Notes under the pieces: model-generated | The model's input: only the letters and a program-made list of their open reading frames with translations | Told to the model about the DNA's origin: nothing | Database searches by the model: none | DNA from: a candidate division FCPU426 bacterium | GTDB taxonomy: Bacteria > Oederibacteriota > PGYV01 > Palsa-1178 | Assembly (NCBI GenBank): GCA_963840035.1 | Contig: CAWIXE010000001.1 | Coordinates: 332,503 to 396,502, forward strand | DNA: 64,000 nt | Direction: 5' to 3' | Program-made: the position numbers and the translations under genes | In this document: piece after piece, positions 4,413 to 52,878 of the stretch | Layout of the letters: each line of letters begins with the position of its first letter | Position numbering within the stretch: position 1 is the first letter of the stretch

Positions 4413-4504
4413 TACAATGGGCTATGTGTAATATTTTTCCGGGTTCCAGCGTGCGGGCCGCCACATGGGGCGGCCCCTACATGGTAAGTAATAATTCATA
4501 AAAC

Positions 4505-22150: not shown

Positions 22151-22927
22151 CTACTCACAACTTTCTATACCCTTCTTTCTCCCCACCACTATAAACCCTC
22201 CGCCTTTTTCCGGCAGAAGTTTTGTCATTATCGCGTCTATGGCGTCAAGCTTCCAAAATATGAATTTTTCCGGCAATTTGCCTATGATATTCTCAAGGCC
22301 CTTGGGCATCCTTAAATAATTTGTTGATATGGTCTTTTCCACTTCAAACCCGGCCTTATACATGAGATCTTTTACCTCTTTCGGGTTGAAGTTAAAAAGG
22401 TGGTCCTTGTGCTCTATCTCCAGTTTTTTCGCGTGCTTTTTAAACATGAGCTTATAAAACGCGTCCTTGTTGGTGAGGGTTACTATTATGATGCCGCCTT
22501 CTTTTAAGGCGTTGTAGGCGTTTTTTATGACCTTGCCGGGCTCATAGGTGTGGTCAAGGACTTCCTTTATCAGGCAGGCGTCGTACGCGCAGGATTCCTC
22601 CAGCGTCTCGCCTGTGCCGTGCCTTAACTCAAAATCCTCTTCCTTTATCTCGTCATGAAGCATGTTCTCGGATGGCTCTATGCCGGTATATTTTTTTACA
22701 ATATCGCGCGAGAGCTTGTAAAAATCCCCCCTGCCCGCCCCTATATCCAGCAGGCTTAAGTACTCATTGCGCGCCACGACTTCCTTGGCCAGTATGGAGA
22801 TGACGGTCTTATTGAGCCTTTTCCACTTTTTTTTCATCATCTCTGTGGCAGAGCTCTCCAGCAGCTCGGTATCATCCCACTTAAGCTGCGTCTCTTCCCA
22901 GGCTTTTACCTTATCGTCGTTTTCCAT
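22151..22927 (-). CDS. Class I SAM-dependent methyltransferase
   Basis: Motif I LLDIGAGRGDF. I place the probable start at MENDDKV (22927). The longer ORF-track start (23068) reads through the REP element. Confidence 0.7.
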   Translation of the reverse strand: MENDDKVKAWEETQLKWDDTELLESSATEMMKKKWKRLNKTVISILAKEVVARNEYLSLLDIGAGRGDFYKLSRDIVKKYTGIEPSENMLHDEIKEEDFELRHGTGETLEESCAYDACLIKEVLDHTYEPGKVIKNAYNALKEGGIIIVTLTNKDAFYKLMFKKHAKKLEIEHKDHLFNFNPKEVKDLMYKAGFEVEKTISTNYLRMPKGLENIIGKLPEKFIFWKLDAIDAIMTKLLPEKGGGFIVVGRKKGIESCE

Positions 22928-23010
22928 AAATCTCCCGGCTGTTGTGTTGATATGACTTATTTTAACAAAAACAGAGGTATATTTAAAGGTGTAATAAGGG
23001 ATTTTATTGT

Positions 23011-23179
23011 TCTCGTAGAGAGGGGGCTTGCCCCCTCTCAAACGCAGGCCTGCCTTGAGATCCAGCAAGCCGGCTCTCTACAGTTATATAAAACCACAAC
23101 AAAGTTCTCGTAGAGAGGGGGCTTGCCCCCTCTCCAGCGCAGGTCCTGCCCTGAGAGGCAGCAAGCCGCCTCTCTACAG
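23011..23179. repeat. Two REP-pair (BIME-like) units downstream of the RAYT gene
   Basis: The unit CTCGTAGAGAGGGGGCTTGCCCCCTCTC...CCGGCTCTCTACAG occurs twice (23011-23093 and 23106-23179). It has a GTAG head and hairpin stems. Confidence 0.65.
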
Positions 23180-23698
23180 GTTCTCTAACTTCTTCCGTTC
23201 CTCAAACAATTCATACCATTCCTTCTCTTCCATGCCGGGTTCATAAACCATTGGGTTGTTTAATATATACTCACTTGCAAAAAAATACTCAAATTCTCCC
23301 CGTATTATCCTGTCATAAAACCCTTCCTGCCAAAATTTCCTGCCGGGTTTCTGTTGTAATTTATTAATTGCTATCGTTGATTTTGATTTAAAAACGCATA
23401 TCATATCGTGGAGTGTTTTGCCTGTTTTCCTGCCAATCCGGATAATACCGTGCATATGATCCGGCATAAACATAAAATCGCCAAGAGCAATGTTTTCAAA
23501 CTTACTTTTTAGTTCGATCCAGCATGCTGTTGCCGCCTTTCCGGCGTCTGACAAAAACATTTTTCGGTCTTTTATAGAACCAAAAAAGTTATGCCGTTTA
23601 TCAAGACAGATGGTGACAGAATAATCCCCTTCCGATGAATAGTCATATTCTTTTAAATGATTTGATTCGATACGGTATTTGTTGTTGTAAAGCGACAT
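23174..23698 (-). CDS. REP-associated tyrosine transposase (RAYT, IS200/IS605 TnpA-like HUH enzyme)
   Basis: HUH motif FMPDHMHGIIRI. Catalytic Tyr region FWQEGFYDRIIRGE. 174 aa. Flanked on both sides by inverted REP pairs. Confidence 0.75.
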   Translation of the reverse strand: MSLYNNKYRIESNHLKEYDYSSEGDYSVTICLDKRHNFFGSIKDRKMFLSDAGKAATACWIELKSKFENIALGDFMFMPDHMHGIIRIGRKTGKTLHDMICVFKSKSTIAINKLQQKPGRKFWQEGFYDRIIRGEFEYFFASEYILNNPMVYEPGMEEKEWYELFEERKKLENL

Positions 23699-23744
23699 AT
23701 AAACCCCTCTATTTTACGATTTATATCCCCAAAATACGTTTTAC

Positions 23745-23894
23745 TTGCCCCCTCTCAAACGCAGTCCAGCCCTGAGAGCCAGCAAGCCGGCTCTCTACAG
23801 TTTTATAAATACAAAACAACGCTCTCGTAGAGAGGGGGCTTGCCCCCTCTCAAACGCAGGCCCTGCCCTGAGAGCCAGCAAGCCGGCTCTCTAC
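23745..23894. repeat. REP-pair (BIME-like) units upstream of the RAYT gene
   Basis: A partial unit plus a full unit of the same 75-85 bp repeat as 23011-23179. Confidence 0.65.
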
Positions 23895-23906
23895 AAATTA
23901 TATATA

Positions 23907-24974
23907 TTATTTAACTTCCGCCTTATACTTCACCAGCCGCTGTTTTTTCTTCCCTTCCAGCATCTCCAGCGCGAGCCTTCCTATGAACTCAGCTGGTATT
24001 TCCAGGCATTCCTTGTAAATGTCCTTCCTGTTGCATATGGCAAGCCCGCACGGGCTGCATTTGACGTGCCTGTCTACTATTACGGCCTTGTCTCCCATGG
24101 CTCCCCACTCCTGGTACCTTGCGGAACCGCTGAATATGGTGAGCGACTTTACGCCGAAAGCCGCCGCGATATGGACGGCCGCGGAATCATTACCTATGAC
24201 GAGAGAGGCGTGTTTTATAATGGCTTTCATTTCCTTTAAGTTGAGCATACCTGCCAGGTTTACCACGTGCCTGCCGCGTATCTTTTCTATGCCCCTGTCT
24301 TTTTTCCCGCCGACTACGACGGTCTTTATGCCGCGCGACATGAATTCAGCCAGGCTGTTGTACTTTTCCATGTCCCAGTCTTTGGACGTGTGCCCAGAGA
24401 CAGGGTGCATGACTATGTATTTCGTGACTTTTCCTTTTTCAAGAAGGGCTTTTATGTTGTCTTCCGATACCTTATCTGTTTTAAGCGCTGTTTTTGCTGG
24501 AAGCTTTACGCCTGTTATTTCTTTTAGCAGGAGCATGTTTTTTTCCGCGGCGTGGGATGAGATCGGCGGGTGGCTTACAATATGGTTGATGCCAAACCCC
24601 ATTTTGCCGGTATCGTATCCGTATTTGTCCTTTGCCTTTGCCATGGAGAGTATAAACGAAGTGAGCCTGTCCTGCCAGCGCATGCCAATTATCATGTCAT
24701 ACTTTCCGGCGTTTAAAAGGGATATGAGTTTGAATGCGGAAAACCATCTTACGAAAAACGGCTTTGGCTCGTACTTAAGCCATTGCGCGTCAAATGTCTT
24801 AACTTCATCAAAACACCCGAGCCCGTCTAAAACCTGCGAGCCCGCGGGGCTTAAGAACGCGGTGATGTGGGCGTCCTTAAAATGTTTCCTCAGTCCCAAA
24901 AAAAATGGAGACGCAAGTACTGCGTCTCCGATACCGTCTGTTTTTATGACCGCGATGCGTAGCCTGTTTTCCAT
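23907..24974 (-). CDS. ADP-heptose:LPS heptosyltransferase (GT9 family)
   Basis: N-terminus MENRLRIAVIKTDGIGDAVLASPFF. C-terminus GNDSAAVHIAAAFGVKSLTIFSGSARYQEWG. Confidence 0.7.
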   Translation of the reverse strand: MENRLRIAVIKTDGIGDAVLASPFFLGLRKHFKDAHITAFLSPAGSQVLDGLGCFDEVKTFDAQWLKYEPKPFFVRWFSAFKLISLLNAGKYDMIIGMRWQDRLTSFILSMAKAKDKYGYDTGKMGFGINHIVSHPPISSHAAEKNMLLLKEITGVKLPAKTALKTDKVSEDNIKALLEKGKVTKYIVMHPVSGHTSKDWDMEKYNSLAEFMSRGIKTVVVGGKKDRGIEKIRGRHVVNLAGMLNLKEMKAIIKHASLVIGNDSAAVHIAAAFGVKSLTIFSGSARYQEWGAMGDKAVIVDRHVKCSPCGLAICNRKDIYKECLEIPAEFIGRLALEMLEGKKKQRLVKYKAEVK

Positions 24975-25066
24975 GATGTGCCGCCCACAATCACAGATCC
25001 CAAATCACATATCCCAAATTATTACAAAATCTTTGGGATTTGTGATATGGGATTTGTGATTATTAT

Positions 25067-33791: not shown

Positions 33792-34105
33792 GTAGAGACA
33801 CAGCTTGCTGTGTCTCGCATTTAACGCCTGGAACCCAACGTCTGAGACGCAGCCATTCGATATGTATATGTCATGAGAGTATTATAGGACTCATGGCATA
33901 TGCAAGCTGCGTCTCTACAGAAAACTAAAAACACTACATTAACCGTTTATGTATTTCGTAGAGACACAGCTTGCTGTGTCTCGCCTTAACACCTGGAATC
34001 CAACGTCTGAGACGCAGGCAAGTCTGCGTCTCTACAGAGAACTAAAAGAACACTACATTAACCGTTTATGTATTTCGTAGAGACACAGCTTGCTGTGTCT
34101 CGCCT
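33792..34105. repeat. REP/BIME cluster (about 2.5 tandem units of roughly 120 bp)
   Basis: Forward REP GTAGAGACACAGCTTGCTGTGTCTC. Inverted REP GAGACGCAG...CTGCGTCTCTACAG. The first unit carries a roughly 50 nt insertion in the hairpin loop. The spacer AACTAAAA.ACACTACATTAACCGTTTATGTATTTC is conserved. Confidence 0.6.
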
Positions 34106-38109: not shown

Positions 38110-38830
38110 ATATAAAACCTTAACCCTTACCCTCACCCTTATCCTTAGCCTGTAGCTCTTGCATTTAGATTTAGAGCCAGAGCCAAATGCTAAGGTTAAG
38201 AATTAAGGATAAGGGTTAAGGTGCTACTTAACCCTCACCCTTAGCCTGTAGCTCTTGCATTTAGATTTAGAGCCAGAGCCAAATGCTAAGGTTAAGAATT
38301 AAGGATAAGGGTTAAGGTGCTACTTAACCCTCACCCTTAGCCTGTAGCTCTTGCATTTAGATTTAGAGCCAGAGCCAAATGCTAAGGTTAAGAATTAAGG
38401 ATAAGGGTTAAGGTGCTACTTAACCCTTACCCTTACCCTTAGCCTGTAGCTCTTGCATTTAGATTTAGAGCCAAAGCCAAATGCTAAGGTTAAGAATTAA
38501 GGACAAGGGTTAAGGTGCTACTTAACCCTTACCCTCACCCTTAGCCTGTAGCTCTTGCATTTAGATTTAGAGCCAGAGCCAAATGCTAAGGTTAAGAATT
38601 AAGGATAAGGGTTAAGGTGCTACTTAACCCTTACCCTCATCCTTATCCTTAGCCTGTAGCTCTTGCATTTAGATTTAGAGCCAGAGCCAAATGCTAAGGT
38701 TAAGAATTAAGGATAAGGGTTAAGGTGCTACTTAACCCTTACCCTCATCCTTAGCCTGTAGCTCTTGCATTTAGATTTAGGCCCAGAGCCAAATGCTAAG
38801 GTTAAGAATTAAGGATAAGGATTAAGGTGC
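38110..38830. repeat. Tandem array (about 7 copies, period about 95-102 bp) of family C CT-rich / AG-rich imperfect palindromic repeat
   Basis: Unit TTAACCCTTACCCTCACCCTTAGCCTGTAGCTCTTGCATTTAGATTTAGAGCCAGAGCCAAATGCTAAGGTTAAGAATTAAGGATAAGGGTTAAGGTGCTAC. The copy number of the CCCTTACCCTCAC sub-block varies. Confidence 0.7.
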
Positions 38831-39546
38831 TACCTGACTTCCACCGCTGCCGCATTATTCGCCGTATTGCTTTTTACGTCGGCGTCTATAAAGTACTGCT
38901 TTACGACCGTCCATCTTTTCGGCGGCCAGTAAACCAGCCACGCCCTTCCGCGGAAATACTCCCCGGGCAAAAAACCCCAGTGGCGCGAATCAGCCGAATT
39001 ATCCCTGTTGTCGCCCATCATAAAATAGGAACCTGCCGGAACTTTTATCGGCCCGAAATTGTCCCTGTATGAATCACCGTATGTTTTTTTATCGCTGTGC
39101 CACACATAAGGCTCTGATATTATTTTATTATTTATGAATAGCTGTTTGTTCTTTACCTGTATGATGTCCCCCGGCAGGCCGACGCAGCGCTTTATGAACA
39201 TTATATTAATATCCTGGGGATAGCGGAATATAGCGATTTCCCCCCTTTTTGGCATGGGAAACTTTACTGCTTTTTGCGCCTTTTCCGGAAGCAGCGAGCC
39301 GTATGCCCATTTATTAACGAGCAGCTGGTCCCCTTTAAGGAACGTATGCTCCATGGATTCCGAAGGTATCCTGAAGGCCTGTATGAAAAATATCCTTAAA
39401 ACCGCCGCCACGGCCATGGCAAAAAACGCCGGCTCCACCCAGTCCCGCAGTTCTGAATCCTTTACGCGTAATATGAATACGATAAGTATCTCAGCGAGGA
39501 AAAGCGTGCCGAACAGGGACCAGAAAATTATTTCCGTTACTTCCAT
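38830..39546 (-). CDS. lepB: Signal peptidase I
   Basis: SPase I boxes GDNRDNSADSRHWGF and the Ser/Lys regions. I place the start at MEVTEIIF (39546). The ORF-track N-terminal extension reads through the family D repeat. Confidence 0.8.
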   Translation of the reverse strand: MEVTEIIFWSLFGTLFLAEILIVFILRVKDSELRDWVEPAFFAMAVAAVLRIFFIQAFRIPSESMEHTFLKGDQLLVNKWAYGSLLPEKAQKAVKFPMPKRGEIAIFRYPQDINIMFIKRCVGLPGDIIQVKNKQLFINNKIISEPYVWHSDKKTYGDSYRDNFGPIKVPAGSYFMMGDNRDNSADSRHWGFLPGEYFRGRAWLVYWPPKRWTVVKQYFIDADVKSNTANNAAAVEVR

Positions 39547-45644: not shown

Positions 45645-45660
45645 TGGCACACCCCTTGCT
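45645..45660 (+). promoter_or_regulatory. Sigma-54 (RpoN) -24/-12 promoter upstream of hsp20
   Basis: TGGCACaccccTTGCT matches TGGCAC-N5-TTGCW exactly (GG-N10-GC spacing), about 60 nt upstream of the hsp20 ATG. Confidence 0.55.
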
Positions 45661-45718
45661 TTTTAATAATTTGAAACCGCTAACAATGGCGGGAATAAAA
45701 AACAAGGAGGCGAGTTGT

Positions 45719-46153
45719 ATGAGACATCTTGAAAGGCACGACTTACCGGTTTTAAGAAGTAACACCTTTTTTCCCAGCTTTTTCGACGACTTTTTAGGGA
45801 AAGAGGACTTCATGGGGCTTTCGAAGTTTACGCCGGCGGTTGATGTCGCGGAGGAAAAGGACAGGTATGTTGTGAAGGCGGATTTCCCGGGCATGAAACA
45901 GGAAGACATCAGGGTTGAGGTGGACGCTAACACGCTGACTATCTCGGGGGAAAGAAAGCACGAGAAAGAGGAAAAAGACGACAAAAAACACTACCACTAC
46001 TATGAGCGCAGCTACGGCTCTTTCGAACGCACCTTCACCCTCCCGCACGACGCTGACGGCGACAAGATCAAAGCCAAAGTGGAACACGGGGTCCTCACGG
46101 TTGACATACCGAAATCAGAGACGAAAAAGGCTAAGGAAATAAAGGTGGAGTAA
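45719..46153 (+). CDS. Small heat-shock protein, Hsp20/alpha-crystallin family
   Basis: Alpha-crystallin domain: VDVAEEKDRYVVKADFPGMKQEDIRVEVDANTLTISGERK...AKVEHGVLTVDIPK. AAGGAGG ribosome-binding site at 45704-45710. Confidence 0.85.
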   Translation: MRHLERHDLPVLRSNTFFPSFFDDFLGKEDFMGLSKFTPAVDVAEEKDRYVVKADFPGMKQEDIRVEVDANTLTISGERKHEKEEKDDKKHYHYYERSYGSFERTFTLPHDADGDKIKAKVEHGVLTVDIPKSETKKAKEIKVE

Positions 46154-46173: not shown

Positions 46174-46208
46174 GAGGGCGCATAATATGCGCCCTCTACG
46201 GTTTTATG
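46174..46208 (+). terminator. Rho-independent terminator after hsp20
   Basis: GAGGGCGCATAATATGCGCCCTC (9 bp stem) followed by TACGGTTTTATG. Confidence 0.5.
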
Positions 46209-46249: not shown

Positions 46250-47333
46250 CCTGCCTTGAGACGCAGACAAGCTGCGTCTCTACAATGGTTGTAAATATTT
46301 CAGCTGTGAAAACCCGTAGAGACGGGACCCGTGCCCGTCTCCGCGCTGCTGCGTTGCTGCCCTGAGACGCAGACAAGCTGCGTCTCTACAGTGTGCGTAA
46401 ATATTTCAGTTCTTAAAACCCGTAGAGACGGGACCCGTGCCCGTCTCCGCGCTGCTGCGTTGCTGCCCTGAGACGCAGACAAGCTGCGTCTCTACAGTGG
46501 TTATAAATATTTCAGCTGTAAAAACCGTAGAGACGGGCCTTGTGCCCGTCTCCACGCTGCTGCGTTGTTGCACTGAGACGCAGACAAGCTGCGTCTCTAC
46601 AGTGGGTGTAAATATTTACAGCTGTTAAACCCGCAGAGACGGGACCCGTGCCCGTCTCCGCGCTGCTGCGTTGCTGCCCTGAGACGCAGACAAGCTGCGT
46701 CTCTACAATGGGTGTAAATATTTACAGCTGTTAAACCCGTAGAGACGGGACTCGTGCCCGTCTCCGCGCTGCTGCGTTGCTGCCCTGAGACGCAGACAAG
46801 CTGCGTCTCTACAATGGTTGTAAATATTTCAGCTGTTAAAACCGTAGAGACGGGACCCGTGCCCGTCTCCGCGCTGCTGCGTTGCTGCCCTGAGACGCAG
46901 ACAAGCTGCGTCTCTACAATGGTTGTAAATATTTCAGCTGTGAAAACCCGTAGAGACGGGACCCGTGCCCGTCTCCGCGCTGCTGCGTTGCTGCCCTGAG
47001 ACGCAGACAAGCTGCGTCTCTACAATGGTTGTAAATATTTCAGCTGTGAAAACCCGTAGAGACGGGACCCGTGCCCGTCTCCGCGCTGCTGCGTTGCTGC
47101 CCTGAGACGCAGACAAGCTGCGTCTCTACAATGGTTGTAAATATTTCAGCTGTTAAAACCGTAGAGACGGGCCTTGTGCCCGTCTCCGCGCTGCTGCGTT
47201 GCTGCCCTGAGACGCAGACAAGCTGCGTCTCTACAATGGTTGTAAATATTTCAGCTGTTAAAACCGTAGAGACGGGCCTCGTGCCCGTCTAAACCCCGGA
47301 TCGATCCAGACCCCCACGAGGGGCGTCTCTACG
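46250..47333. repeat. Tandem array of about 10.5 BIME-like units (period about 105-108 bp), each holding two inverted GTAG-headed REP hairpins
   Basis: Unit GTAGAGACGGGACCCGTGCCCGTCTCCGCGCTGCTGCGTTGCTGCCCTGAGACGCAGACAAGCTGCGTCTCTACAATGGTTGTAAATATTTCAGCTGTGAAAACCC. The spacers are not unique, so it is not CRISPR. Confidence 0.75.
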
Positions 47334-52641: not shown

Positions 52642-52878
52642 ATTATTCTCCTGTTGTTATTGTATGGTTCTGTAGTGGCAATTCATGAATTGCCGATCCT
52701 TCCCTGGGCGATTCGTGAATCGCCCCTACAAAAACAATGCTCATTTTTAAATAAAGCCGGGTATCCGATAACTCCTTCCGGGCATCCGGTACCGTTGCTT
52801 CCTTCCGGACCTGGCGGGGTTGCGGAGCCGGCAAGCGCATCAGACCCGGCCTTATTTTGTTTGTTTTGTTTTTATATT

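Follow-up and report, generated by a model that had tools for sequence, protein, structure and literature searches.

A probable REPtron at a variable junction in an uncultured lineage related to FCPU426/Goldiibacteriota MAGs: a RAYT gene set in a short array of GTAG-headed REP doublets

The window analysed here, a 64-kb stretch of DNA (64,000 nucleotides), contains an intergenic segment in which a RAYT transposase gene lies among short inverted repeats of the REP type. The gene, taken from ORF calling on the 64-kb window, is accompanied on both sides by doublets of one repeat family, which we call family A. As had been noted from the sequence beforehand, the segment sits between a methyltransferase and a heptosyltransferase gene, both on the minus strand. 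Two other clusters of REPs, families B and C, are found further along the window. The features are listed below.

22151-22929, minus strand: class-I (DREV-type) methyltransferase gene, neighbour of the RAYT gene
22930..23906, no strand assigned: intergenic REPtron segment, 977 bp, from the GT9 stop codon to the methyltransferase start codon
23015..23081, plus strand: family A doublet U1, complete, its second REP being degenerate (2 mismatches in the stem)
23110..23177, plus strand: family A doublet U2, made of GTAGAGAGGGGGCTTGCCCCCTCTC, an 18-nt linker and an inverted REP
23153..23177, minus strand, as the gene: the REP directly 3′ of the RAYT gene, GTAGAGAGGCGGCTTGCTGCCTCTC; its GTAG head holds the RAYT stop codon
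23174..23698, minus strand: RAYT coding sequence (HUH/Y1), 174 aa, with the stop codon TAG at 23174-23176
23744..23798, plus strand: family A doublet U3, truncated; missing from it is GTAGAGAGGGGG, the first 12 nt (head and 5′ half-stem)
23827..23894, plus strand: family A doublet U4, complete; it ends 12 nt short of the GT9 stop codon
23907-24974, minus strand: GT9 heptosyltransferase gene (P0074), neighbour of the RAYT gene
33792..34101, no strand assigned: REP family B cluster, GTAGAGACACAGCTTGCTGTGTCTC with an inverted GTAGAGACGCAG... REP; it matches the REPs flanking the clade III RAYT P0015
46259..47332, no strand assigned: REP family C array, about 10 tandem heterodoublets with a period of 106 bp, GTAGAGACGGG..CCCGTCTC with an inverted GTAGAGACGCAGCTTGTCTGCGTCTC

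The four family A doublets comprise seven and a half REPs, with U1 and U2 on one side of the RAYT gene and U3 and U4 on the other. Each REP consists of a GTAG head and a 9-10-bp G+C-rich stem, and each unit joins two inverted hairpins whose GTAG heads face outward. The complete units U1, U2 and U4 read GTAGAGAG-hairpin ... hairpin-CTCTCTAC, in the order GTAGAGAGGGGGCTTGCCCCCTCTC, a linker of about 18 nt and the inverse of GTAGAGAG(C/G)CGGCTTGCTG(G/C)CTCTC. The preliminary description had two inverted REPs in every flanking unit, which is confirmed, except that one of the four, U3, is truncated. It also gave a unit size of 75-85 bp; the units measure 67-68 nt each, are all co-oriented and recur with a period of 95 bp. 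A block of partial unit, spacer and unit forms a 168-nt direct repeat with 87% identity across the gene (23027-23194 and 23744-23911). A simple 717-bp tandem duplication of the flanks is ruled out because the REP blocks alone are repeated and the gene is not. Folded as single-stranded DNA, family A units close end to end into a single long hairpin of -20 to -29 kcal/mol (z -3.7 to -7.4), with U2 reaching -26.8 and -29.2 kcal/mol (z = -6.8 and -7.4); the doublets have the REPIN arrangement. Within the 64-kb window, family A REPs are found only beside the RAYT gene.

The encoded protein belongs to the HUH/Y1 transposases by sequence and by predicted fold. It passes the Pfam Y1_Tnp model (28.5 bits, gathering cut-off 23), and its top NCBIfam model is REP_Tyr_transpos, at 56.4 bits below the equivalog cut-off of 80; the IS200 NCBIfam model falls far under this, at 20.1 bits against a cut-off of 55. 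A profile built from 16 homologs finds 4er8_A as its best match in the PDB (E=2.9e-5), the structure of E. coli TnpA_REP in complex with a REP hairpin. Reaching it required the profile search; single-sequence phmmer against the PDB returned a spurious match to NAP1. An AlphaFold (AF2) model of the protein (pLDDT 83, pTM 0.80) leads to the same entry, with 4er8_A the first Foldseek match in the PDB (E=2.9e-7, TM 0.62-0.65 over 150 columns), followed by the IS608, ISDra2 and IS200 transposases. Homologs in JGI carry the label 'REP element-mobilizing transposase RayT'.

The catalytic residues can be placed on this alignment. The HUH motif that had been read at DHMHGII is confirmed as H81-M82-H83, which is invariant in the 16 homologs and aligns to the HMH of 4er8_A. 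The catalytic tyrosine had been sought in FWQEGFYDRII; that residue, Y128, is variable among homologs (R, N, F) and lies opposite a Trp of E. coli TnpA_REP (IWQPRFWEHAIR), and was dropped as the nucleophile. The predicted catalytic tyrosine is instead Y144, in EYILNNP, which shows the Y-x-x-x-N spacing expected of the nucleophile, is invariant together with N148 among the 16 homologs and in 4er8 has the tyrosine of DYIYINP as its counterpart. Both HUH and Y144 align to 4er8_A in the profile match, so the correspondence with the IS200/RAYT family on which the first identification depended is present. Nunvar (2010, PMC2817692) lists as RAYT-specific a conserved Thr in the N-terminal part and, following the Tyr, the motif NP(L/V)(R/K)xG; here T29 and N148-P149 are invariant in the 16 homologs, and the remainder reads M-V-Y-E, with no (R/K)xG.

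Close homologs (50-69% identical) were retrieved together with the DNA on either side; their sources are metagenomes of peat, soil and groundwater as well as MAGs carrying the label FCPU426 or 'uncultured bacterium'. GTAGAG-headed REP doublets lie beside every close homolog examined (L001-3, L081/83, L085, L088, L089, L092, L093 and L098). The RAYT proteins form four clades, about 48-52% identical to one another, and clade and stem type go together in these relatives, a mapping drawn from 1-4 independent loci per clade.

Clade I: P0001 (the window RAYT), P0004 (L081/L083), P0003 (L088) and L098; stem type GAGAGGGGGC with GAGAG(C/G)CGGC; in the window, family A
Clade II: P0007/P0009 (L001-3, L085); stem types GAGAGGCTGC and GAGCGGCTGC; no match in the window
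Clade III: P0015 (L089); stem types GAGACACAGC and GAGACGCAGC; in the window, family B
Clade IV: P0027 and P0014 (L092, L093); stem types GAGACGGGGC and GAGACGCCCC; in the window, parts of family C

The copy number of the REP arrays varies between relatives, and REPs of the clade's own type also occur about 10 kb away from the RAYT gene in L085, L088 and L089. Scanning metagenomes with a profile of clades III and IV brought in a single further clade I locus, L098, but no new close member of clade IV.

Across the 64-kb window we count 29 GTAGAG-headed hairpins with a stem of at least 8 bp, where 100 first-order Markov simulations contain 0.02 on average and never more than 1. The recurrence of the GTAGAGA head in two other clusters, proposed at the outset, is found at 33792-34101 and 46259-47332. 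In most family C units one REP is clade IV-like and the other, a GACGCAG REP, is clade III-like, which makes them heterodoublets; the clade IV match lies in the first REP (GAGACGGG...) and in the last REP of the array (47308-47332), and the array closes with a doublet of the pure kind seen beside clade IV RAYTs. The units of this array are 94% alike. The heterodoublets of families B and C fold as two separate hairpins rather than one long hairpin of the REPIN kind. Neither the GTAG head nor the first three pairs of the stem (GAG/CTC) vary among the 16 different 25-nt REP types compared, and at five of the nine pairs both sides have changed together from family to family, so that pairing is kept; this count is partly circular, since the sequences were picked as hairpins, and is used solely to show that the families keep their stem through paired changes. 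Rfam has no match at the REPs, its only match being an SRP RNA elsewhere. Recognition of these repeats as REPs accounts for several long 'intergenic repeat' arrays in the genome.

The RAYT gene and its array meet in an unusual way. The TAG at 23174-23176 serves both as stop codon and as part of the GTAG head of the 3′ REP (23153-23177), so that the reading frame closes right at the start of the repeat. The same junction (..G|TAG|AGAG-hairpin) is present at five of the six other independent close loci (L001/L085, L002/L003, L081, L088 and L092/L093), the exception being the clade III locus L089, which has TTAGAG and no hairpin directly after it. It is seen again in L098, outside this six-locus comparison, and is only sporadic among 77 more distant RAYT loci. 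REP termini have been reported often to supply TAG stop codons to neighbouring genes (PMC3733652), so we regard the junction as a conserved peculiarity of this clade and not as a new principle. For annotation it calls for caution, as stop codon and REP head overlap. At the other end, the truncated U3 abuts the 45-nt leader of the RAYT gene. A 28-nt stretch of leader, ATATAAATCGTAAAATAGAGGGGTTTAT-ATG, is common to the clade I loci L081 and L088, and the junction between leader and upstream REP is different in every clade I locus; in the window the REP is cut in its loop.

The genomic surroundings bear on how the unit came to its site. Two relatives (L094 and L095, with GT9 proteins 75-76% identical) keep the order DnaG, RpoD, GT9, a gap, DREV methyltransferase, GT4 and PMT_2. 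The gap holds two glycosyltransferase genes in L094, and an HTH/cupin gene, an AMP-ligase gene and a DUF3276 gene in L095; neither contains a RAYT or a GTAGAG REP between GT9 and methyltransferase. The presence of other genes, and of no RAYT or REP, makes the REPtron a lineage-specific occupant of a variable junction within the conserved DnaG-RpoD-GT9 / MT-GT4 order, a description that implies no direction of events; no truly empty site at the GT9/methyltransferase junction was found among the relatives compared. Mobility is indicated elsewhere. Two RAYT copies in one MAG (L002 and L003) have only an 825-bp segment in common, 93.6% identical and set in unrelated surroundings, and this segment consists of the RAYT gene and its flanking REPs, which argues that the whole unit was duplicated or moved at least once. 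Vertical inheritance is indicated as well, by the synteny that L001 and L002, which come from two different MAGs, show around the RAYT gene at about 80% nucleotide identity.

A REPtron origin is also compatible with a different present state, in which the RAYT is a domesticated or decaying relic and the doublets persist for roles at the RNA or chromosome level in the rpoD-GT9-MT operon region, as mRNA stabilisers, attenuators/terminators or protein-binding sites. All three REP clusters sit between co-directional genes, the typical REP position (PMC3733652), one flanking unit is truncated and another degenerate, and the fusion of stop codon and REP sets a strong hairpin directly after the ORF. 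We nonetheless consider a relic unlikely, if worth keeping in mind. The ORF is intact and all its catalytic residues are invariant across homologs only 50-68% identical, array copy numbers differ among relatives, and the 94% likeness of the family C units suggests recent amplification. Nor does a simple scan call an intrinsic terminator at the REPs themselves. The promoter/terminator scan gave weak consensus matches only, among them a -35-like TTGAGA inside the truncated REP, and these are not relied on.

Whether one enzyme serves all three families is a separate question. The preliminary description proposed that one RAYT services several REP families; on that reading the RAYT at 23174-23698 would mobilise families A, B and C through the shared GTAGAGA head and hairpin shape, whatever the stem. 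Some cross-reactivity is possible, because the families share the head and the first stem pairs (GAG/CTC, invariant in all of them). Family C doublets join REPs of two stem types, published group 3 enzymes accept some variation in their substrates (PMC8266576), and tblastn finds no second RAYT in the 64-kb window. In the relatives, however, each stem type adjoins its own RAYT clade, and species with several GTAG families are reported to have repeat-specific REPtrons (PMC3733652). The suggested check for other RAYT copies, empty within the window, does turn up a candidate beyond it. Searching with the clade III protein brought up P0028, a RAYT of clade IV with 172 aa, 49% identical and with HUH and Tyr intact, for which the record gives one NCBI/ENA contig, 1,235,064 bp long. 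P0001 and the window GT9 (P0074) are likewise recorded on a 1,235,064-bp contig from the same sources; on this matching length and these sources, rather than on sequence, we infer that P0028 shares the contig of P0001, in which case at least one further RAYT accompanies the window gene. A clade III protein, P0022, is recorded on a 517,234-bp NCBI/ENA contig that may or may not share an assembly with the window. Given the clade-specific flanks in relatives, P0028 and the reported precedent (PMC3733652), we think it reasonably likely that families B and C are substrates of paralogous RAYTs elsewhere in the genome and not of the RAYT described here, and a single enzyme for all three families appears improbable.

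A bolder extension, which we offer as speculation and ourselves doubt, is that the lineage may hold at least four paralogous RAYTs with GTAGAGA as their common head, which tell REPs apart through 4-5 stem pairs that vary. The REPtron would then be mobile with its right boundary at the stop codon inside GTAG, as the L002/L003 duplication suggests, and the family C heterodoublets would be products or substrates of two RAYTs acting jointly. If true, these 4-5 pairs would amount to a natural specificity code in the hairpin stem. Four RAYT clades about 50% identical, with a common GTAGAGA head and differing stems, form a natural series that could be used to map how stems are read.

It is highly improbable that the locus is instead an ordinary autonomous IS200/IS605 insertion sequence, with tnpA between subterminal hairpins, outside any RAYT/REP system: the superfamily fold and HUH/Tyr chemistry are shared, gene and flanks occur twice in one MAG at 93.6% identity as a transposing unit would, and the window element is lineage-specific at its site, but the RAYT model of NCBIfam reaches 56 bits and its IS200 model only 20, TnpA_REP is the top match by structure and by profile, both flanks are the same arrays of GTAG-headed doublets in variable number rather than distinct left and right subterminal hairpins with unique ends, tnpB is absent, no second copy lies in the window, and the L001/L002 synteny at about 80% nucleotide identity points to vertical inheritance.

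We therefore favour, with good confidence, the reading of the locus as a REPtron: a RAYT of the HUH/Y1 type (IS200/IS605 superfamily) with a short array of family A doublets, its cognate repeats, around it, seated at a variable junction, with families B and C most likely serving as substrates of paralogs. The identification first made from the sequence is upheld by the Pfam match, by REP_Tyr_transpos as the best of the NCBIfam models, by the profile and fold matches to 4er8 and by the flanks of homologs. It rests on the observed anatomy of the locus, on homology and fold, on the association of clade with REP type in relatives and on synteny. What we describe is a known selfish-DNA system in an uncultured lineage related to FCPU426/Goldiibacteriota MAGs, with no new mechanism, and it extends the well-documented RAYT/REP systems to that lineage.

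For catalysis, cleavage sites and the pairing of enzyme with family, we infer a mechanism from homology with TnpA_REP of E. coli, S. maltophilia and Marinomonas (PMC3479197, PMC3333891, PMC8266576). The RAYT would bind to single-stranded DNA where a REP has folded, and would recognise this REP by its GTAG head and stem-loop. It would then cut a nearby dinucleotide via Y144, with a metal held by H81/H83, to give a 5′-phosphotyrosine link, and would join the strand to another 3′-OH, by which REPs and doublets could be copied, spread and rearranged and local arrays built. GTAG heads, cleavage at CT and the REPtron concept itself have been described previously (PMC8266576, PMC3479197, PMC2817692). 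At the RAYT locus a CT lies 0-1 nt 5′ of the REP heads, as CTC-GTAG or CT-GTAG. The tandem arrays near and away from the RAYT gene fit the BIME-forming models of Nunvar et al.

The E. coli REPtron (TnpA_REP / RayT YafM with its REP/BIME elements, 4er8, 'group 2') has the same HUH and single-tyrosine Y1 fold, a 5′ GTAG head, and inverted REPs beside the gene in BIME-like arrays. It differs in several respects. Identity between E. coli TnpA_REP and the window RAYT is about 19% in the structural alignment, and the NP(L/V)(R/K)xG motif is reduced to NP in the latter. While the E. coli REP is bulged and imperfect, the REPs of the window have 9-10-bp stems that are almost perfectly palindromic around a CTTG/TT loop, and the stop codon of the window RAYT lies inside a REP head.

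The window repeats recall those of the group 3 REPtrons of Stenotrophomonas maltophilia and Marinomonas MWYL1 (PMC8266576), which likewise combine GTAG with short perfect palindromes and 3-4-nt loops; the likeness is one of resemblance only and not a phylogenetic placement. Group 3 genomes also hold several REP classes, each with its own RAYT, and cleavage at CT (or CA) next to the REP is the chemistry that would be expected of the window RAYT. Unlike those hosts, the host here is uncultured and non-proteobacterial, with relatives labelled FCPU426 or Goldiibacteriota.

The REPIN-RAYT system of Pseudomonas fluorescens SBW25 (Bertels and Rainey) shares with family A the inverted REP doublets that form a long hairpin, and shares with the wider picture multiple REPIN families with paralogous RAYTs per genome and an inheritance that is mostly vertical, here seen in the L001/L002 synteny. 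In contrast, families B and C of the window are heterodoublets with two hairpins each, tandem arrays in the window reach about 10 units, and a RAYT plus REP unit is duplicated in a related MAG (L002/L003).

Finally, the IS200/IS605 elements, represented by the TnpA of IS608 and ISDra2, belong to the same superfamily and share the recognition of hairpins in single-stranded DNA and the logic of a 5′ tetranucleotide guide. Their TnpA is about 130-150 aa long, whereas the window RAYT has 174 aa with RAYT-type extensions, and the window element has no tnpB and is flanked by members of multi-copy REP families.

The mobility of the REPtron, the RAYT gene together with its flanking GTAG-headed REPs, can be addressed from a pair of loci within one MAG (ERR1035437_bin.115). 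In this genome, the RAYT and REP units of L002 (9882–10705) and L003 (9881–10687) are 93.6% identical and lie in differing genomic contexts, which is evidence that the whole REPtron is able to duplicate or move. Several other metagenomic RAYT homologs (L154 3001–3524, L153 3001–3542, L163 221–548, and L102) retain a high-identity match limited to the N-terminal ~90–100 residues. Fully palindromic GTAG...CTAC REPs are located shortly past the end of the match in these homologs, at ~3496, ~3514, and ~518, and the genes may have been disrupted by REP insertion.

Upstream of the RAYT gene in the window (23731–23758, minus strand), the truncated half-REP contributes a −35-like TTGAGA, followed 16 nt later by a weak −10-like TATTTT, both identified as consensus matches only.

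In family B, the first doublet (33792–33918) has a linker of ~95 nt (33817–33911) versus ~26 nt in the next doublet, and it looks as if its two REPs were separated by a different linker or by inserted sequence. Further GTAG-headed hairpins occur elsewhere in the window, one of them next to an SRP RNA gene:

46175–46200: solo REP of a further type (GTAGAGGGCGCATATTATGCGCCCTC), just past the stop of the ORF at 45656–46153
52706–52729: GTAG-headed hairpin of another type (GTAGGGGCGATTCACGAATCGCCC), 22 nt downstream of the SRP RNA gene
52752–52851, minus strand: gene for a bacterial small SRP RNA, matched by Rfam RF00169 at 58.6 bits

The solo REP is similar to GTAGCGGGCGCATATCATGCGCCCG in L089, a clade III RAYT locus. 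Hairpins resembling the SRP-RNA-adjacent one (GTAGGGGC) are found at 4455–4480 of the window, as well as in L089 and in L095, a relative sharing the GT9 synteny.

Two additional repeat regions were observed. An intergenic tandem array at 38129–38833, with minus-strand ORFs on either side, comprises a 102-nt unit repeated seven times (93% identity). Every copy forms a long, imperfect palindrome, rich in CCCTTA/TAAGGG and with GTAGC...GCTAC at its ends, and the array is unrelated in sequence to families A–C. In the gap separating the rpoD stop from the GT9 start (24984–25060), 14-nt tandem repeats (CCCAAATCACAGAT, ~2.5 copies) stand opposite their inverse (TGGGATTTGTGATA, ~2 copies), together forming a composite inverted repeat, which could act as a protein-binding site or an RNA structure.

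The family C array (46259–47332) consists of ~10 heterodoublets, in which a clade IV-type REP (GAGACGGG..) is paired with a clade III-type REP (GAGACGCAG). The sole exception is the last doublet (47266–47332), which is a pure clade IV-type pair. The hybrids of family C combine REPs cognate to two different RAYT clades.
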